DNA from: a virus | DNA: 64,000 nt | IMG/VR virus record: IMGVR_UViG_3300032893_000027 | Span: 1 to 64,000 of that record | Strand: one strand, 5' to 3' | Shown here: positions 37,759 through 47,475 of the stretch, one piece after another | How positions within the stretch are numbered: position 1 is the stretch's first letter | Layout: each line of letters starts with the position of its first letter | The notes under the pieces: generated by a model | Database searches by the model: none | The model's input: only the letters and a program-made list of their open reading frames with translations | What the model was told of the DNA's origin: nothing | Program-made: the position numbers and the translations under genes

Positions 37759-37761
37759 TGG

Positions 37762-37914
37762 TTAGTAACCTCCTGCCGCTAGTGCCCAGTTGAGGTCGTT
37801 AACATTCTCGGTGGCGCCGGAAGTAGCAACCTGAGCAACCGTAGGATTGATCGCAAAAGGAGTACTTACGCTCGTCAAGGGAATCGACATCAACAGATTA
37901 AATATGCGCTCCAC
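37762..37914 (-). CDS. 50-aa hypothetical protein
   Basis: AGGAGG RBS followed by GTG at 37914. Confidence 0.5.
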   Translation of the reverse strand: MERIFNLLMSIPLTSVSTPFAINPTVAQVATSGATENVNDLNWALAAGGY

Positions 37915-37925
37915 AACGCCCCTCC

Positions 37926-38849
37926 TTAGCTCAACGGGAACGTGCCCCAAATGGCACGCCAGTCGTAGTAGGTGGGAACATAACGCTGATAGCCCTTAAC
38001 AAGCAAGTTGTCAGTGGTGAACTCCACAGACATGTCCATTTCGAACGGCTTGCGGTTAAAGAAGATCAGGCCGTCATGATTGGTCAGGATGAACCACGCG
38101 TAGCTCGACGTCAGATAGTCGAACACCATGTAGCCTTCCTTGAGCGAATCATTCATGCCCAAGATCGCGTTAACGTCGTTGGTCGTGGTGCCCGGACGAA
38201 GCTCAGACCTGAACAGGCGCAGAGCAATGGGCTCCAAGTTCGGGGGGATAATAACCTTACGCCCACGAGCATGGATTTTCAGACCAGCGTTGTCACGCCA
38301 GTTGGATCGGATCGTAATGAGAGCATTCAGAAGAGTGGTCTCATTCAGATCAACGTCAGGAGACGGCTGGTTGGCAATCGACCCATAGGGCGGGTCAATC
38401 GGGTGGCCAGTCGAGTTAATCAGCGACACACCGTCACCACCAACCGCCGCGTTATAGGTCGTTGCGGTATTGAGGACGTTGGCAGCATAGATTTCCTCGG
38501 TCTCCTTGAACGATTCCATCAAACCGTCATTGGAGGGGCCGAACTCTGCCTTGTAGAGGTTGTCATCAATGGCCTTGCGAGTAATCGCGTAGCCAAGGCC
38601 AATCTCGAAGTGCTCTGCGTTGTAGACAAAGCGCTGACCAGCAGAGTTGTCGAAGGAGGTCGGGGCGCCTTCCTGCTTTAGCTGAGCATAGCCCAGATAA
38701 CGCATTGCGGCCCGACGTTCCAAGGCCATCTCGGAATTGGTCTGCCTGAAGATCTGCGGCCACTGCCGCTCGATCATGGCATACTTTCCGGAGATACCCC
38801 AAAGGCCCGGAAGGAGTAGATCTCGGATTTGTGAGAGTGCTACGGGCAT
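37926..38849 (-). CDS. Major capsid protein (HK97-fold, Mu gpT-like type)
   Basis: LLLPGL, GYAITRKAIDDNLY, ETEEIYAANVLN, DYLTS..AWFILT, YYDWRAIWG. Confidence 0.9.
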   Translation of the reverse strand: MPVALSQIRDLLLPGLWGISGKYAMIERQWPQIFRQTNSEMALERRAAMRYLGYAQLKQEGAPTSFDNSAGQRFVYNAEHFEIGLGYAITRKAIDDNLYKAEFGPSNDGLMESFKETEEIYAANVLNTATTYNAAVGGDGVSLINSTGHPIDPPYGSIANQPSPDVDLNETTLLNALITIRSNWRDNAGLKIHARGRKVIIPPNLEPIALRLFRSELRPGTTTNDVNAILGMNDSLKEGYMVFDYLTSSYAWFILTNHDGLIFFNRKPFEMDMSVEFTTDNLLVKGYQRYVPTYYDWRAIWGTFPLS

Positions 38850-38861
38850 CTATTCTACTCC

Positions 38862-39503
38862 TTAGGTGGTCTCAGCGGTCAGAGACCGGCGGAGCGAGTT
38901 GTTGAACGACACGACCATGATCGAACCCGCCGTGGTACCATCTGCACCGTTGACTCCGGGCGGAAGGTAGTTCGAGGACGTTTCCACAATCCTGAACGGA
39001 TAGCTGGAGTTCGCCGATACGGCGCTCGACAGGATGGCAATGTTGGAAATGCCCGTCGTGGTATTGCCACCGGACTGGGAGGAGCCAGTCTGACCGGACG
39101 TAAAGCCGATATTCCACCCGGTAACCGAAGTTCCCAGCACAGCGGACGTGGTGCTCTGTACCAAGAACAGATTGTCCTCACCCTCAATAACATAAGCGTT
39201 ACAAGGAGAAGACGATGTGCCAAGGTTGCCGGGGAAGTAGCTGGACCACACCACACGACCAACGGCAGCGCTGTAGTACTCGCAGCCGTTAAAGATGCCG
39301 AGGATCGGGTTGCCAGTTGTCACACCAGACGCCGGAAGAGTGATGTATCCGGGAATGGCCGTAGACAGCATCACCACGTCACCAGTGAAGTACGTATTGG
39401 TGTCGCTAGATGCGAGATAGCGGCGGGTTAGGCCGTAGGTAGGGGCGTTACCTTCGAGGGTGCCGAACTGGCGAAACCCAAACGGTGAAAAGGTGTTGGC
39501 CAT
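38862..39503 (-). CDS. Capsid decoration/cement protein
   Basis: MANTFSPFGFR..YFTGDVV..GIFNGCEY, directly upstream of the major capsid gene. Confidence 0.7.
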   Translation of the reverse strand: MANTFSPFGFRQFGTLEGNAPTYGLTRRYLASSDTNTYFTGDVVMLSTAIPGYITLPASGVTTGNPILGIFNGCEYYSAAVGRVVWSSYFPGNLGTSSSPCNAYVIEGEDNLFLVQSTTSAVLGTSVTGWNIGFTSGQTGSSQSGGNTTTGISNIAILSSAVSANSSYPFRIVETSSNYLPPGVNGADGTTAGSIMVVSFNNSLRRSLTAETT

Positions 39504-39654
39504 AAATTAAGCCTCCACAAACGTCATAGTGGACTCCAATCGGCCTTCACTCTGAGCGCCAGAGCTATTCCGGGTGAAGCCACCACAGCGCGTGGAGGCT
39601 AGAATGGTGCGGGTGGGTCATGCCGAGTGAAGGCGAACAACCCACCCACTTTTC
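39504..39654 (-). promoter_or_regulatory. Structured 5' leader of the decoration/capsid genes
   Basis: Several complementary segments, including a 9-nt anti-SD, two GCGCU-loop hairpins and a 10-bp long-range pairing. Confidence 0.55.
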
Positions 39655-40182
39655 TTACTCGGGGATGTTAATCCTCTCGTAAGACTTTCGAATCTTATTG
39701 GACCTTAATGCAGATTCGTGGCGGCTGTCAAGTGAGGTATTAATTTCCCCGCCCGTAAGTGCTTGCTCCTTAATGGCAACCTGCTCCAAAGCAGCCCTAC
39801 GATCTCGGTTCTTGGCCCGGATACTAAGCTCCAATGGCCTTGCCATCAGGCACGAACCATCCAGCCTGATCTCTCCTTTGGCCCCTTTAGGAGTGAAAAC
39901 CCCATCAAAGCGGCCATCAAAGTCTTCAGGGTGAACTGGAGTCCAGCCCGTCTTCTCGGCTGAAGCCCGCCATTCGGCGAAGGGTTTACCCAGAACGGTA
40001 TCTGTAACCCAACGCATATCCATCCCCTCTGGGATCATATGCTGCGGTACATGCATCTTATCCGGATGGTCTTCCACCATATCCGGATCAATATCATCCC
40101 AGTTCTGACGGGCCTTCATGGTCCATCGGGAATCAGGACGCTTCTCTTCCCGATCAATACCGGGGTTACTCTTGGCTTTCAT
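39655..40182 (-). CDS. Conserved phage head-module protein
   Basis: IPEGMDMRWV..GWTPV..LMARP. Confidence 0.7.
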   Translation of the reverse strand: MKAKSNPGIDREEKRPDSRWTMKARQNWDDIDPDMVEDHPDKMHVPQHMIPEGMDMRWVTDTVLGKPFAEWRASAEKTGWTPVHPEDFDGRFDGVFTPKGAKGEIRLDGSCLMARPLELSIRAKNRDRRAALEQVAIKEQALTGGEINTSLDSRHESALRSNKIRKSYERINIPE

Positions 40183-41138
40183 TACGGTTGACCTCCATAG
40201 TTACCAAGCTTCTTCTCTTCCCGCAGCTTCATAAGCTGCACGGCATAATCAGCCTCAGAGACGCCAGCAATCTTTGCGGCCTCCTTCTGGGCTGCGGTGA
40301 GGGTAATACGGCCGGTATCTCGCTGGCCACTGGCCTTGGGCACCTCCCGAGACGGAGGGGCGCTGTAAGCGATCTTCCGAGTCTGGGTAGGCTTTTCCTC
40401 TTCGCTCACTTCCAACTCCTCGTCATCCTCAGGCTCCAGACTACCACGCATTCCAAGCCTTTCCTCCATCCTTTCGAAGTAGGGCTGCGAATAGGGCTGG
40501 AGGCCCTCGGCTACCACCTTCCAGTGAAGATACTGAATCTCAGCGTTCTTTTCTGGATTGTGGAGATACTCTGGATGTTCCCGCAGCCACGTCTTGGCCA
40601 GTGGAGGAAGTGCGGTACTATCAAGGGCATCTTGCTGTTGAGGCTTAGGTTCGTACTTCGGACGCTCCTTGATTTCACGCTCGATAGCTTCCTTGCCCTG
40701 TTCCAGCGTCAGGATCTTAGTCTCAGCCCGCGCCAAGCGGCGATAAGCCTCAGCCTGAGCCTTGCCATCCCCAAGCTGGGTGGCCATCTCAATGTCCCTT
40801 TGGGCCGTCTCAGCCTCGCCCTGAGCGGCAGCAAGGGCCGCACTGAGCGTCTCCTGCTGGCTTGTCATGGACCGTTCTTGAAGCTTATTGACTTCAAGAT
40901 CGCGTTCCTGAGCCTGCTTGATGGCGTCAAGCTTGGCCTGACGCTCCTGCTCTATCTGGGTGCGATAGGTCTCATTGGCTTTTCTGAGGGTTTCGAGTTC
41001 GGCTTTAAGTGAAGCCGCTGGATCTTCTTGAGCCTCAACCTTCTCGGTATTGGTCTCTAGAGGTTCGCCCTCAACAGGGTCTCTTTCAACCACTTGGGCT
41101 GCGGCCTGACGGCCTCGAATAGGTCTCAATTTAGGCAT
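40182..41138 (-). CDS. Putative scaffolding protein
   Basis: Coiled-coil; C-terminal ITLTAAQKEAAKIAGVSEADYA; lies between portal and capsid genes. Confidence 0.7.
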   Translation of the reverse strand: MPKLRPIRGRQAAAQVVERDPVEGEPLETNTEKVEAQEDPAASLKAELETLRKANETYRTQIEQERQAKLDAIKQAQERDLEVNKLQERSMTSQQETLSAALAAAQGEAETAQRDIEMATQLGDGKAQAEAYRRLARAETKILTLEQGKEAIEREIKERPKYEPKPQQQDALDSTALPPLAKTWLREHPEYLHNPEKNAEIQYLHWKVVAEGLQPYSQPYFERMEERLGMRGSLEPEDDEELEVSEEEKPTQTRKIAYSAPPSREVPKASGQRDTGRITLTAAQKEAAKIAGVSEADYAVQLMKLREEKKLGNYGGQP

Positions 41139-41140
41139 TC

Positions 41141-41572
41141 TTAATCCTTATCAATAATCGCAGGGTCCTTGACCTTCATGCGGATCGAGGAGTCCCTCAC
41201 CAAACGGCAGGGCCAATCCCCGACCGTCAACTGCCACGCATCACCAATCTTGAATACCACCCACTCGTTAATGTCGGCGGCTTGACCATTAAAGGAGAAC
41301 TCCCCATCATCTCGGAAAGCATCCTTCCCCATCTTCAGAACAAGACCGGTCTTGCCTTGCCATACATCCTCTTCGAGCGTATTCCCCGTGAGAATGATTC
41401 CACCCTTGGTCTTGGCCGGTCGAATATAGGTGGCGATCAAGACCATGTTATACATCACGTCGATTCCGGAGAGGTCCCCCACCTTGGCCCGAATCGCCGC
41501 CTTGCGCTCGGCAAGCTCAGGTATCTGGCTAACCTCTTCAATTGCTTTACGATTTAGTTTTACATGGCTCAT
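41141..41572 (-). CDS. groES: GroES-like co-chaperonin
   Basis: KTKGGIIL..GLVLKMGKDAF..EWVVF..CRLVRD. Confidence 0.8.
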   Translation of the reverse strand: MSHVKLNRKAIEEVSQIPELAERKAAIRAKVGDLSGIDVMYNMVLIATYIRPAKTKGGIILTGNTLEEDVWQGKTGLVLKMGKDAFRDDGEFSFNGQAADINEWVVFKIGDAWQLTVGDWPCRLVRDSSIRMKVKDPAIIDKD

Positions 41573-42843: not shown

Positions 42844-43062
42844 TTACTTCTTTCCAGCTTGACTACCGGCAGGCTTACCGGCAGGGATGGGACCAATGCT
42901 CTCCCGTGCCGGGAGGGTTAGGGGATCAAGATCTTGGTTCTGGTAATAGGCCATATCAGCAGCCTTATCACCCGGCCATTTATAATGGTCGGCATGACCA
43001 ACAATCTTTTGCATCTTGGTAAACCGAGATTTCTTAACGTCGCCGTGATGATGATGTGCCAT
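42844..43062 (-). CDS. Small His-rich protein
   Basis: Coupled to the portal stop codon. Confidence 0.55.
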   Translation of the reverse strand: MAHHHHGDVKKSRFTKMQKIVGHADHYKWPGDKAADMAYYQNQDLDPLTLPARESIGPIPAGKPAGSQAGKK

Positions 43063-45773
43063 TAGTCCTCGTCCCTCTTGGGTTTCTTTGTAACAGCTTT
43101 CTTACTAGCTGTCACCTTGGCCTGAGCCAGCTTCTTGCTGGTAGAAAGTTCTACCTTATGTTTTTCTTTCTTCATTTGCATTTCTTGATCGTTATGATCT
43201 AGCTGCTGCTCATGAGCCTCATCTTCTCTTTCAGTTTTCGCCTCTTCAGACGGACCATGCGCTTTCGCAGCAGCGTCTCCCATTTTCTTGGCCGCCTCAA
43301 GTTCGACCTGATGCCGTTCCCTCTGGTGCTGCATCTCTTGGGCATGCTGCGCCGCCTCCCGCGCTAACTGAGAGCGGTGCTTCTGGTTCTCCATCTGAAT
43401 CTGTTGGTTGCCTTTCTGCTGCTCTAGGGCAAACTGCCCCTTCTGCTTCATGGCTTCCGTATACAGATTCGCTTGGTTTTCCTGATGCTTGGCATGGACA
43501 TCATGAGCCCGAGCCAGCATGTCCATCTGCATCTCTTGCTGCTTGGATGCCTGATCCATCTGCATCTTGTGATGAGCCTGAACCAGATCCGTTTGGGCCT
43601 GCTGCGTGTGTATAATACGCTCACCCTCCAGCTTCTTGTCCTGAAGCAGAAGTTTCATCTGCTCAATCTTCTCACGGCTGACCCGCTCCTGCGCCGCATC
43701 CTGTATCTTCATGGCTTCGCTGGCGGCCTTGATCTTCGTCTCAAGCAACTGAATCTCAGCCTGCTTTTCTGCCTGCATTGACTTCTGCTGTATCGCCACC
43801 ATGCGTGGATCAGGAGCAGGAGTAGCAGGAGCCTGACGAAACAATCCTTGCGGATTAATGTCCGCAATTTGCATGACATGCATATCCACCCCAACCGGAT
43901 CGTAAAGATCTGGGTTAGCCTTCTGAAGCTCCTTGATAGCCATAGCCTTGGCCATGCGGTGCAGACTGGTTGGGTTGTTGGGATCGGCCACCGGAACAAT
44001 GTGATAGTCATTAAGTGCTTGAAGGAACTGGTCTTTCTCCCACTTCTTGAAGCCTTTGCAATGCCGGATGAACGCACCGGGATCTTCCCGGAGACGTTCG
44101 ACTAGGAGTTCAAATTCCTTCGCCTGCGAGGCATGGAGACGCTTGTGAGCCGAATCCATGACCTTGGTCGCTTGTTCGATGAGTGCAAGAGTAGTTCCAA
44201 CAGGAGCGTCCTGTTTGCCTTCGCCGACGTTGATGTTTGCTGTCTGTCCAAGCTTTCGTCCAATTTCCTCCAGATGTTGGATGAAGGCCGTAAAGGACGG
44301 ACCCGTCTCTTTGTACGGCAGCGGCATGACCGATTTGCGGATATCATCCTGTGATCCGATTTCAAGTCCAACACCCCCACCCGGAGGCACCCGGAACTGG
44401 TTAGAGAGTTGCCGACCAATCCCCTTTGCATACAAGAAGCCGGGGAAGTTCGCGAACATCCCGTTGTCGAGTTGGAGTCGGGTCGATGCTGTTAATGCAA
44501 TCGTTATATTACCGAGAAGGTGGACATAGCCAAGCCCATAAAAGCCCAATCCACGGACCATTGGGAATTGCACAAAGTATTCTTTGGCGCGGCAGTCCTT
44601 GTCGTCCTTCTTCCAGTTCCTTCTAATGTCAAGAATCTGGCGAGAACCCTTTTCAATTGTGACACGATAGGGAAGGGGTAACCCTTTGCCCTTGAACTTC
44701 TCAGGGGCGAATTCATCGAGGTCTAACTCTGTGTAGATTTCGTAGACTTCATAGTCGCGGTCTTCAGGTTTCTGCGCATTCGGATTGAAGCCTGCAACTT
44801 CATTTTTCTTTTTATCAACCGCCGTTTGAGGGAACTGGACGGGAGCCGCGAGGTCCACATCACGGTAAACCTCTTCGATCTGCATCCGCTTCAGGACCGA
44901 CTTGCGCATCCTGATACGATGGGTGATACGGCCACAGTTCTGGAGATCGGTGGCCGAGTCCGATACGATTAGATCTTCTGCATCAACGCTCTCTGAAACA
45001 GCCTTACGCTTTAGTGGACAGTTAAAAACTTTCTTAAATCCGTCACCACCGAAACCAACATAGAACAACATGCGGTCAGTATCGGCCACATAGTTGGTCC
45101 CGGTTAATAGATAATGGTTGAGTCCCTGTTCCAGCGCTTGAGCGAGTTCGTCGCTACTGGCTGCAAGTTGAGGGGGAGGAAGGGTGGGATATGGATTGTC
45201 GGGGTCCGCCGCATTGGGCGATGCAAGGACATACCTCGGCACAATCGGTGAGTCATTCCGGACCTTAACCGGACCTGCCGCAGGTAATAGCTCCGCTCGG
45301 GCCGTGGCTTGGAATGACACTGTGGCGTCAAGCAGGAGGGGGTGCCGCACCGTGGACATACCCTCCAAGGGGGCAGACGATCCACCAAGGTCGGTACGAG
45401 GCTTTTCAAGCTTGAGCCCAAGTAATTCAATACCGAGAGCCCTTGTTTCCATCCACTCATTCCGCGACAATATGTCGCGCTCGACACCAGCCAGAAGTTC
45501 CGAAGCAATCTTACCGAGTTCATCCTCGGATATTTCAAGGGCAAGGTTGGCTTCGAAACTGGTATCCCGCTTAACAGTGGTATGAGCACGAATAGCTTCC
45601 GGGTTCGTATCAAAAGTCGTGGTTCCATCAGCATTGTCGATGCGAAGCATCCCATGCTCGACGGTTATGTTCACTGTTTCTTCTTTTGACGGACTCTCGA
45701 CCAGCCGCAGTCTGGGCCGGTCTGGGGTCGGATAGGGGTCCGACAATCCCATGCTATTCGATTTTCGAGCCAT
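43062..45773 (-). CDS. Portal protein with long Gln-rich C-terminal coil
   Basis: HPLLLDA..FQA.ARAELLPAAGPVK, GFKKV, LPYRVTI, GFYGLG, APVGTTLALIE. Confidence 0.9.
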   Translation of the reverse strand: MARKSNSMGLSDPYPTPDRPRLRLVESPSKEETVNITVEHGMLRIDNADGTTTFDTNPEAIRAHTTVKRDTSFEANLALEISEDELGKIASELLAGVERDILSRNEWMETRALGIELLGLKLEKPRTDLGGSSAPLEGMSTVRHPLLLDATVSFQATARAELLPAAGPVKVRNDSPIVPRYVLASPNAADPDNPYPTLPPPQLAASSDELAQALEQGLNHYLLTGTNYVADTDRMLFYVGFGGDGFKKVFNCPLKRKAVSESVDAEDLIVSDSATDLQNCGRITHRIRMRKSVLKRMQIEEVYRDVDLAAPVQFPQTAVDKKKNEVAGFNPNAQKPEDRDYEVYEIYTELDLDEFAPEKFKGKGLPLPYRVTIEKGSRQILDIRRNWKKDDKDCRAKEYFVQFPMVRGLGFYGLGYVHLLGNITIALTASTRLQLDNGMFANFPGFLYAKGIGRQLSNQFRVPPGGGVGLEIGSQDDIRKSVMPLPYKETGPSFTAFIQHLEEIGRKLGQTANINVGEGKQDAPVGTTLALIEQATKVMDSAHKRLHASQAKEFELLVERLREDPGAFIRHCKGFKKWEKDQFLQALNDYHIVPVADPNNPTSLHRMAKAMAIKELQKANPDLYDPVGVDMHVMQIADINPQGLFRQAPATPAPDPRMVAIQQKSMQAEKQAEIQLLETKIKAASEAMKIQDAAQERVSREKIEQMKLLLQDKKLEGERIIHTQQAQTDLVQAHHKMQMDQASKQQEMQMDMLARAHDVHAKHQENQANLYTEAMKQKGQFALEQQKGNQQIQMENQKHRSQLAREAAQHAQEMQHQRERHQVELEAAKKMGDAAAKAHGPSEEAKTEREDEAHEQQLDHNDQEMQMKKEKHKVELSTSKKLAQAKVTASKKAVTKKPKRDED

Positions 45774-45780
45774 ATATTAG

Positions 45781-47475
45781 TTACGACCAGTATAGAGGCT
45801 GGGACAAGTTCCGACGATCATATGCCATTTCGTCATCTGATGCCACTCTATACTCTTCCTTACGTAGGGCAAAGCCCATATCTCTCAACCACCTAAGCGC
45901 TTGAGAGGTACTGTCTACCAGATCGTCATGGCTACCTTTGGGGAAGATACCGCACTGGCGAATCACCTTATCGGCCCAACTTCTATCCGGCGCATAGACC
46001 ATTCCGTCCCGGAACAAATGTTCAATCGAGTTCACCCGTGCCCACTTGTCGCCATACTTCTTGGGGTCGACTTGTTCCACCGACAGCCTTCCGGTTCCCC
46101 GGAGCAGCCGACTGAGTTCCTGCCCGACTGACTGGCCGCTGCCCTTGGCCTCGATTAACAATCTATCCACAGGGAATGTGGGCCATGTCGCCCCCTCCTG
46201 AGGGATACAGGTATCCATCACCTTCTGTAACAAGTCCGTGAATTGGAGCCGCTCCTCCCATGCATAGAGCAACATGATCTTGGGGTGGTCAATCATGGGC
46301 TTATTTTCGATAAACAGCTTGTGGCGACCCCTGAGGTCCGGAACCGGTTCTATTAGTTCCGATTCTTCCCGCCATATCCCCCATACCGTGAGGGCCGAGG
46401 GATCGTTCTCATCCTTCTCCGTAAAGGCCGGGTCCAAGGAAGCTACGACGAATTCGAATGGCGGAAGCCTTGGCATCTTATCCGTGTCCCAAAGCTGCCA
46501 ATATTCCTCCTTAATAATGGCACCACCACGAGGAACCGGATACTGCTGATACTGACCAGCCCACGCATACGGACCCTTATCTCGTTCCATATTCACGCAA
46601 ACTTGATCAGTGAACCGCTCGGGCCATGCTAGTTCTCCGTCCTCTTCTCTGGGGTCCTCCCAGATATTCTCGACCTCTTGAATCTCTCCAGTCTCCGGGT
46701 TAGCGAGTTCCTCTGTTCCTAAGACCGTAACACAATGACGGGCAGGATCATGCCGCATCGGTATCATAAGGTGGGTGTAACCCATCTCACGAGAGACGGC
46801 GACACCGGATACGTCGTCCTCGTGAAGTCTTTGTTGAATAATAACAATTGCGGATTCTTGGGGGTTATTGAGACGGTCTGGAACGACTTCCGTAAACCAC
46901 ATGTTCGTTGTGTATCGAACCTGTTCCGACTCCATCTCCATTGTGTTGTTGGGGTCGTCAATGATGAACCTGTCGCCGCGTTCACCCACCCCGATACCAC
47001 TAACGGAGGTAGCGAGCTTCCAACCAGTCTTGTCGTTGGCGAACTTGATTTTGGTAAATTGTTCGTTACTAATGTGGAACCGATTTCCCCACAGCTTTTG
47101 ATACCGGTCGCTAATGACAATGTTGCGACAACGCATATTATCGCGTTCCGTCAAGTGATTCGAGTAAGAAGCGCAAACATATCTGGTCCACGGCATATTT
47201 CGGGGACCCCACTCCCACGCTGGCCAGAACACGTCAGTCATTAACGACTTCGTGAAGCCGGGTGGAACATTGATGAGGAGACGTTTGATATGGCCGTGGG
47301 TGACAGCTTCGAGGTGCTCCGCAATGGCTTCTATAGCCCAACCTCTTATAAAGGGGATAGCGGGCTCGACTACGGGCCAAACATACTCGGCAAATTCTAT
47401 AAGTCTGCTTTCGGCGCGAACCTTCTCCATACGCTTTGCGATTTCGGCGGCAGCCTTAAGGACAATAGTGTGCAT
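45781..47475 (-). CDS. terL: Terminase large subunit
   Basis: LLINVPPGFTKS (Walker A), IIDDP, IQQRLHEDD, SLDPAF, IEAKGSG, HDDLVDSTSQA. Confidence 0.95.
   Translation of the reverse strand: MHTIVLKAAAEIAKRMEKVRAESRLIEFAEYVWPVVEPAIPFIRGWAIEAIAEHLEAVTHGHIKRLLINVPPGFTKSLMTDVFWPAWEWGPRNMPWTRYVCASYSNHLTERDNMRCRNIVISDRYQKLWGNRFHISNEQFTKIKFANDKTGWKLATSVSGIGVGERGDRFIIDDPNNTMEMESEQVRYTTNMWFTEVVPDRLNNPQESAIVIIQQRLHEDDVSGVAVSREMGYTHLMIPMRHDPARHCVTVLGTEELANPETGEIQEVENIWEDPREEDGELAWPERFTDQVCVNMERDKGPYAWAGQYQQYPVPRGGAIIKEEYWQLWDTDKMPRLPPFEFVVASLDPAFTEKDENDPSALTVWGIWREESELIEPVPDLRGRHKLFIENKPMIDHPKIMLLYAWEERLQFTDLLQKVMDTCIPQEGATWPTFPVDRLLIEAKGSGQSVGQELSRLLRGTGRLSVEQVDPKKYGDKWARVNSIEHLFRDGMVYAPDRSWADKVIRQCGIFPKGSHDDLVDSTSQALRWLRDMGFALRKEEYRVASDDEMAYDRRNLSQPLYWS

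Follow-up and report, generated by a model that had tools for sequence, protein, structure and literature searches.

In phage lambda, two alternative folds of the cIII mRNA leader set the rate of translation initiation. In phage Mu, translation of mom is activated by the zinc-finger protein Com, which binds a small hairpin upstream and destabilises the translation-inhibition stem (TIS) (PMC6483171). In the leader of the maturation (A) gene of MS2 (Levivirus), an upstream complementary sequence pairs with the Shine-Dalgarno (SD) sequence over a long distance, and a conserved metastable hairpin delays closure of this pairing (PMC4615214). Here we describe a leader from the IMG/VR virus record IMGVR_UViG_3300032893_000027 that shares features with each of these. 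Positions 1 to 64,000 of the record (the window) were analysed; they come from a complete viral genome of 75,366 bp with direct terminal repeats, assembled from a wetland metagenome. The stretch is present in three wetland DNA runs, and no RNA dataset was listed as containing it. The leader occupies the gap in front of the genes for a probable capsid decoration protein and the major capsid protein, on the minus strand. This cis-acting mRNA element is structured, conserved and uncatalogued, of a known functional kind and with unusual twin loops. We consider it reasonably likely that the gap is the 5' leader of the decoration and major-capsid mRNA working as a two-state translational switch, and that the leader most likely gates the amount or the timing of the capsid-surface protein.

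The proposed switch turns on a hairpin, P1, and a long-range helix, P3, which share one strand and are therefore mutually exclusive. In the favoured (OFF) state, the loop, 3' arm and downstream linker of P1 would pair with the ancestral SD (SD1) and the ancestral AUG, the latter now the start of a short upstream open reading frame (uORF). In the long form of the leader carried by the window, the P1 5' arm, AGCCUCCAC, would additionally pair with the working SD (SD2), GUGGAGGCU. In the ON state, the 5' and 3' arms of P1 would pair with each other, releasing both ribosome-binding regions. P1 would form first during transcription and is predicted to be about 12 kcal/mol less stable than OFF, so something would have to hold it. 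The holder would most likely be a phage-specific factor that, present as two copies or as a dimer, binds the identical GCGCU loops of P1 and of a second hairpin, P2; a direct contact between the two loops is the alternative. Factor or contact would activate translation.

In its logic, this arrangement is closest to Mu com-mom, where a stem with a hairpin just upstream conceals the start signals of a late gene, as is proposed for P3 and P1. Sequestration of the start signals is likewise predicted here in silico, with SD1, the uORF AUG and SD2 all buried. The leader differs from com-mom in having two hairpins with identical loops, no Com homologue and no sequence similarity. In addition, the bound hairpin would here itself carry the sequestering strand, and the gene controlled encodes a virion protein, not a DNA-modification enzyme. 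In its folding, the closest analogy is the MS2 leader, since in both cases OFF is the equilibrium fold and the alternative hairpin is conserved. However, the two are not homologous: the MS2 leader is the 5' end of an RNA genome, forms a cloverleaf and is without twin identical loops, whereas the present leader is internal to a DNA phage mRNA and folds as a single long hairpin. Alternative folds and long imperfect duplexes are also shared with lambda cIII and with the RNase III sites of T7 and the lambda N leader, from which the present leader is set apart by the conserved competition between P1 and P3 and by the twin loops.

The pairings on which the initial annotation had based a switch are all in place when the gap is read on the minus (coding) strand. 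The stem GGGTGGGT/ACCCACCC (39611-18 with 39640-47) is paired at 8/8 positions, the complementarity of 39543-52 with 39625-34 holds at 10/10, and that of the ribosome-binding site (RBS) with its upstream complement (AGCCTCCAC/GTGGAGGCT, 39510-18 with 39592-600) at 9/9. Both GCGCU-loop hairpins are also present (39595-39583 and 39565-39549), the first of them being longer than had been annotated, with nine pairs and one U.U mismatch (AGCCUCCAC-GCGCU-GUGGUGGCU). The gap folds at -78.4 kcal/mol, compared with -53.3 +/- 4.5 in shuffled sequences (z = -5.6, 0/200 shuffles as good), and its antisense strand folds more weakly (-62.9). Comparison gaps in the head module are unexceptional (z = -2.0 for 42897-43061 and +0.9 for 37759-37925). 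The predicted fold consists of a separate hairpin (hairpin 0, 39649-39609) and one long imperfect hairpin running from 39600 to 39510; the latter, the predicted OFF hairpin, contains some 35 pairs interrupted by small internal loops. The 9-mer GTGGAGGCT occurs twice in 64 kb and is not rare by itself (0.56 expected, with 7/100 shuffles reaching 2). Its weight comes from its position and its conservation in relatives, not from rarity.

Relatives of the 213-amino acid (aa) protein encoded directly downstream of the gap were confirmed in IMG/VR (557) and in JGI metagenome contigs (243), and the best 80 of each set were taken. The proteins are 35-78% identical and come from soil, freshwater and marine viral contigs, and in most a gap of about 90-190 nucleotides (nt) lies ahead of the gene. 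Three parts make up the family leader: P1, with a pentaloop of the form RYGCY, another hairpin whose loop is the same, and the long-range helix P3. The closest relatives (type A, 60-78% protein identity) mostly have a short-form leader of about 90 nt, in which the order is P1 (CCUCCAC-GCGCU-GUGGUUGG), the linker UUCACaCCGG, P2 (RYGCU loop) inside a further helix, P2b, and then GGAG, UCAACC and AUG. All type A leaders have as their minimum free energy (MFE) fold one long hairpin with P2b and P2 at its tip, in which GCUGUGGUUGGUUC (P1 loop, 3' arm and linker) pairs with GGAGUCAACCAUGGC (SD and start); in the short form the hairpin ends inside the coding sequence (AUGGC AAAUAC...). The P1 loop and 3' arm are also paired with the SD and AUG in the MFE folds of most other subtypes folded. 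A covariance model built from the OFF structure (R1) gave 54 matches, with the element ending at ATG+12 in most of them, and aligned 39602-39516 of the window with the short-form leader. A scan with a 16-mer of P1 returned 18 stretches which, beyond the known contig, include two clear new members, one member of 72% GC and one weak, truncated match. Among GenBank phages, no match was found by blastn at the DNA level, and tblastn found three distant relatives only.

No Rfam 15 family was found at gathering thresholds in the whole window. In a scan of the 2 kb around the gap, nothing was found within the gap at E <= 10, the only hit being sR30 at 40380-40430 (16 bits against a gathering threshold of 38), and 14 related loci gave no match at E <= 1. 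With no Rfam family and a structured leader conserved in relatives, the earlier suggestion of an undescribed cis-regulatory RNA is supported.

In the relatives, P1, P2/P2b and P3 all covary. In a gapless, loop-anchored 21-nt alignment of P1 from 30 distinct leaders, compensatory changes are found at 7/7 pairs. Paired cells make up 87.6% of this alignment; shifting the partner by one or two columns lowers the share to 31-37%, and 0/500 shuffles do as well. Compensatory changes are also present at 7/7 pairs of P2 and 5/5 pairs of P2b (e.g. CUUGUG/CACAAG, UCCAUG/CAUGGG and UUGGUC/GACCAA). The OFF structure (P3, P2b and P2) is 87.6% paired with 11 compensated pairs on a plain MAFFT alignment, and 88.2% paired on a model-fitted alignment, with compensation at 22/28 pairs and at 6/7 in the SD-covering helix. 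Three-way changes of the 5' arm, the 3' arm and the sequence before the AUG are seen in the leaders L101 (CCGCCUC / GAGGCGG / CCGUCUC) and L102 (CCAUCAC / GUGAUGG / CCAUCGAU), and P3 is compensated in the 72%-GC member (GUGGCGGCUCC with GGAGCGCGCCAU). In an alignment-free test, the duplex between the P1 3' segment (B) and the ribosome-binding region (C) of the same leader is mostly more stable than that of B with a foreign C (L101, -27.7 vs -17.4; L127, -21.3 vs -11.8).

In the window leader, OFF is predicted at -49.0 kcal/mol and ON, with P1 forced, at -37.2 kcal/mol, a gap of 11.7. Over 27 leaders, OFF is favoured over forced P1 by a median of 9.1 kcal/mol (range 1.3-13.5). P1 is never the equilibrium fold and yet covaries at every pair, which is the signature of a functional alternative structure. 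Until the growing transcript reaches about 70 nt, its minimum-energy fold is P1, and OFF wins once the 3' partner has been transcribed. The predicted unpaired probability of SD1, the uORF AUG and SD2 is at most about 0.1 (one AUG base, 0.37), and the main AUG is partly open (0.43-0.65, in silico). At the same loci, the RBS is on average harder to open in front of the decoration-like gene (15.0 kcal/mol) than in front of the neighbouring capsid gene (8.8 kcal/mol; Wilcoxon p = 1.6e-9); for the window, the in silico costs are 20.2 kcal/mol (213-aa gene) vs 6.2 kcal/mol (capsid gene).

Twin loops, which had been noticed in this one sequence, prove to be a family trait, with two RYGCY-pentaloop hairpins (>= 4 pairs) in 28 distinct leaders and one in 11. 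Such hairpins have a density of about 4.8 per kb in the leaders of relatives, against a background of 0.25 per kb per strand. In the window they are paired up only in the leader gap; a wider twin-loop regulon was rejected, as the other RYGCY hairpins are single and at background rate. P1 is always one of the twins, and its partner is either P2 downstream (type A) or an extra hairpin about 25 nt upstream (type B). The loop variants are GCGCU, GUGCU, ACGCU and GCGCC. In distant subfamilies, which include MW202675, twin loops of CCCGGCG(Y)/CUCGGUG or CGGGCCG precede a helix in which the SD and AUG are again buried. The loop cores are all 4-nt palindromes (GCGC, CCGG and GGCC), and variants with C-to-U changes retain G.U pairs. 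The twin loops fit a bivalent trans-acting factor or a direct loop-loop contact, either of which would stabilise P1 (ON). A search of the complete 75,366-bp genome for a Com zinc-ribbon (PF10122) found nothing at E <= 1, and no CsrA-type protein was found in the genome.

The window carries a rare long form of the leader, with an insert of about 25 nt past the ancestral ribosome-binding region that is shared with L089, L094 and L096/L097; an exact-pattern scan for more long forms returned only an already known contig. The R1 alignment puts the ancestral AUG at 39527-39525, and the uORF start thus appears, from this comparison of sequences, to be the ancestral start codon stranded by the insertion. 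The putative uORF has six codons and its own SD (SD1), contains the SD of the decoration gene and stops 3 nt before the main AUG. L094, L096 and L097 encode MFVEA*, and L089 is without the AUG. The uORF may have a role in the switch. SD2 is conserved in the four other long-form relatives. As SD2 (GUGGAGGCU) is the exact complement of the P1 5' arm, both arms of P1 are paired in the predicted long-form OFF state; in L094 the 5' arm (AGCUUCCGC) is changed at two positions and still pairs with both partners through G.U wobbles. The initial annotation had set the pairing of the SD with its complement against the first GCGCU hairpin. The two are indeed mutually exclusive, but the AGCCUCCAC:GUGGAGGCU pair belongs to the rare long form only. 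It is a derived elaboration, and the family-wide lock is P3.

TTGAC is found 95-260 nt before the start codon in 45/67 distinct leaders, the chance expectation for a stretch of this size being 0.16. Many relatives have TTGACA, a spacer of 16-18 nt and TATAAG/TATAAA directly upstream of the leader, and in some a terminator, or even a tRNA, precedes this promoter. TTGACA is intergenic in some relatives, and in some the TGA stop of the upstream gene lies inside it (gaTTGACA). Like the window, most type A relatives examined spell the Leu-Asp codons of the upstream gene that hold the candidate -35 box as CTT-GAC (L005: CTC), though CTT makes up 25% of Leu codons here. From these comparisons we infer a putative capsid-operon promoter in the window. 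In MW202675 (L169, 2740-3000), a tRNA-like sequence, a clean intrinsic terminator and a TTGACA promoter stand ahead of the leader, and the capsid genes there thus form their own transcription unit.

Several points weigh against a factor-held switch. The 5' end of the transcript, the folds and the regulation are all in silico, and in the window the -10 box is poor (ATTAAG or TAAGGT) and a consensus scan found no promoter. The alignment behind the P3 counts of 22/28 and 6/7 was itself fitted to the OFF structure, and the P3 pairs over AUGGC are nearly invariant and so uninformative on P3 either way. Positions 3-5 of the P1 loop pair with the invariant GGC of AUG-GCN and are thereby already explained, so that only the loop of the second hairpin calls for a factor. 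As for direct contact, about one third of second loops have A at position 1, which breaks the outer pair and thus weakens a four-pair kissing interaction. The genome searches for Com-type and CsrA-type proteins gave no trans-acting candidate. Of the translational switch with a loop-binding protein that was initially put forward, the alternative covarying helices and the burial of the RBS stand, but no Com or CsrA homologue is available as the loop binder. Finally, the sole cultured relative, Pelagibacter phage HTVC023P (L168, 2948-3000), has a 53-nt, AT-rich and essentially unstructured gap. The leader is thus not universal, and it was either lost or never gained in the HTVC023P lineage.

A fuller account of the factor-held switch in HTVC023P-like phages is possible, and we advance it tentatively. 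Transcription would start at a constitutive-looking sigma-70 promoter, and a phage factor, possibly a virion protein that reports on assembly, would bind the identical, self-complementary pentaloops, hold P1 and unlock the RBS, setting timing or dose at translation; the loop pair and the factor would have evolved together, giving three or more specificities (GCGC, CCGG/UCGG and GGCC). The order of folding would also fit a factor-free, kinetic co-transcriptional switch, in which metastable P1 would keep the RBS open only on the nascent mRNA and refolding to OFF would limit how much each transcript yields. The first stable fold is that of P1, with OFF taking over only after the 3' partner has been transcribed, and P1 is strongly conserved despite the median advantage of 9 kcal/mol for OFF; the same logic is seen in MS2, where a metastable hairpin delays SD pairing (PMC4615214). 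We nevertheless regard this as rather unlikely, as neither the retention of P1's loop by the second hairpin nor the joint change of the loop pair between subfamilies (GCGC, CCGG/UCGG, GGCC) is explained by it, and a brief window of translation fits badly with the large need for decoration and capsid proteins.

Extended duplexes with internal loops are the general shape of RNase III substrates, such as the T7 sites and the lambda N leader. The predicted OFF duplex, at about 35 pairs with small internal loops, is longer than the minimum of about 20 pairs taken for such substrates, and the element lies between two gene blocks, as the T7 sites do. It might thus be an RNase III processing or mRNA-stability element, cleavage of which separates the capsid mRNA and frees the SD or leaves a protective 5' hairpin. 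We find this improbable: for a cleavage site the conserved alternative hairpin P1 (7/7 pairs compensated) would be superfluous, the helix always engulfs the SD and start codon, which points to translation, and many relatives have their own promoter directly upstream, so that no processing from a longer transcript is required. In lambdoid phages, the loop of the boxB pentaloop hairpin varies in step with the N protein of the phage, and the put site of HK022 consists of two hairpins. The present leader resembles boxB/nut and put in its small hairpins with a conserved pentaloop that differs between phage groups, two of which lie shortly past a sigma-70-like promoter at the head of a long block of co-directional genes. 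They could accordingly be imagined to load a factor on RNA polymerase, or to modify it, for antitermination through the virion operon of about 28 kb. However, nut and put act on elongation, whereas here the 3' arm is a rival partner for the next gene's SD and AUG, and the covarying helix that buries these would be unaccounted for. Moreover, the hairpins stand directly before the start of one gene, not at a fixed distance from the promoter. No boxA-like element was identified apart from a loose, by-eye resemblance of GCGCUCAGA, nor was any N-like protein, no search having been aimed at such proteins. Antitermination is, if anything, slightly less probable than RNase III processing. CsrA/RsmA-bound hairpins are similar in that the RBS of a virion gene lies in a conserved hairpin, but differ in that the RYGCY loops are without GGA and the genome is without a CsrA gene.

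Other candidate classes were rejected. An RNA thermometer was rejected because the lock, at about 49 kcal/mol, is much too stable, and a riboswitch because no conserved multi-helix junction or pocket is present. A terminator scan of the minus strand over 38800-40300 found no intrinsic terminator of the kind an attenuator would use; the stem in the window is followed by UAAUUUAUGG, which is U-rich and not a U tract. A DNA-level operator was rejected on account of the covarying stems without fixed half-sites, the many G.U pairs and the better folding of the sense than of the antisense strand.

Little is known of how tailed phages control the amounts of abundant virion proteins beyond promoters and SD strength. 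The leader is widespread in contigs related to Pelagibacter phage HTVC023P (soil, freshwater and marine), is in no RNA catalogue, and has twin loops that hint at a trans-acting partner of its own. It is an easily mutated test system for post-transcriptional control of capsid assembly and a candidate new Rfam family, and its short form, at about 90 nt, might be used as a translational ON/OFF part.

Judged by comparison with relatives, the GGGUGGGU hairpin (the core of hairpin 0) and the 10-nt pairing are lineage-specific. Neither hairpin 0 nor its 10-nt partner has a counterpart in any relative; unrelated hairpins or terminators follow the upstream stop instead. Within the loop of hairpin 0, CUUCACUCGG nearly repeats the conserved linker between P1 and P2, CUUCACCCGG (direct repeat, 11/13). 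Since the loop thus copies a segment that already pairs nearby, the 10-nt complementarity seems to be incidental to a partial linker duplication, and the pairing of 39625-34 with 39543-52 would break the conserved P2/P2b. A repeated or mobile element was rejected, there being one copy in the 75-kb genome.

Table 1. Features of the leader and of the surrounding head module, in window coordinates.
Feature	Position	Strand	Details
Large terminase	45781-47475	-	
Portal	43062-45773	-	
GroES-like co-chaperonin	41141-41572	-	phrog_3188, E = 7.5e-10; Pfam Cpn10 slightly below cut-off
318-aa protein	40182-41138	-	without known family
Upstream gene, 175 aa	39655..40182	-	from the open reading frame list; C-terminus ...KSYERINIPE kept in relatives
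Candidate -35 box (TTGACA) of putative capsid-operon promoter	39726..39731	-	inside Leu-Asp codons of the upstream gene
Leader gap	39504-39654	-	151 nt
Hairpin 0	39609..39649	-	GGGUGGGU/ACCCACCC core extends to 13 pairs
P1, anti-sequestor hairpin	39578..39600	-	AGCCUCCAC - GCGCU - GUGGUGGCU; covariation
P2b + P2, twin-loop hairpin	39541..39572	-	CGG ... GCUCUG - GCGCU - CAGAGU ... CCG; in both folds
P3, inner OFF helix	39521..39589	-	P1 loop, 3' arm and linker (39589-39575) with 39538-39521 (UGGAG, CCACUAUG, CGU); MFE fold and covariation
SD1 (GGAG), ancestral SD	39534..39537	-	6 nt before the uORF AUG; aligns with the sole SD of short forms
uORF	39507..39527	-	AUG ACG UUU GUG GAG GCU UAA (MTFVEA*); read from sequence
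SD2 (GUGGAGGCU), working SD of the 213-aa gene	39510..39518	-	9/9 with the P1 5' arm (39592-39600)
213-aa gene (MANTFSPFGF...), probable capsid decoration/cement protein	38862..39503	-	structure-model matches
Major capsid protein gene, 307 aa	37926..38849	-	phrog_371 major head protein, E = 5.8e-6

The head module lies entirely on the minus strand, in the order terminase, portal, small open reading frames, GroES-like gene, two unknowns, gap, 213-aa gene and major capsid gene. The order GroES, two unknowns, 213-aa homologue and capsid recurs in Pelagibacter phage HTVC023P and in MW202675, in both of which the syntenic counterpart of the major capsid gene bears a capsid-protein annotation. Pfam and PHROG searches gave no match for the 175-aa upstream protein, and the 213-aa protein has no Pfam or PHROG family either. 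An AlphaFold2 model of the latter, made with 53 homologues, is all-beta with a predicted local distance difference test score (pLDDT) of 85. Its top PDB matches are decoration or cement chains (Sf11 9ocb, HFTV1 8qsy, T1 9kzj, Pam3 8hdt and TW1 5wk1), although these are weak (E from 1e-3), and its BFVD matches are uncharacterised phage proteins. The product is thus probably a capsid decoration or cement protein as far as the model goes, the label being reasonable because the best, though weak, PDB matches are such proteins. The original naming of decoration and major capsid genes downstream of the gap therefore agrees with the structural matches of the one and the phrog_371 assignment of the other.

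The GroES-like gene is located inside the head module and is syntenic with GroES-annotated genes of HTVC023P and MW202675. The 165-nt gap after the portal gene (42897-43061) contains an 8-pair, GC-rich hairpin (42898-42918) and a 5-pair hairpin on the minus strand (43000-42986), and folds only slightly better than its shuffled versions. The 167-nt gap after the major capsid gene (37759-37925, minus strand) contains TTGACG and may hold a further promoter.

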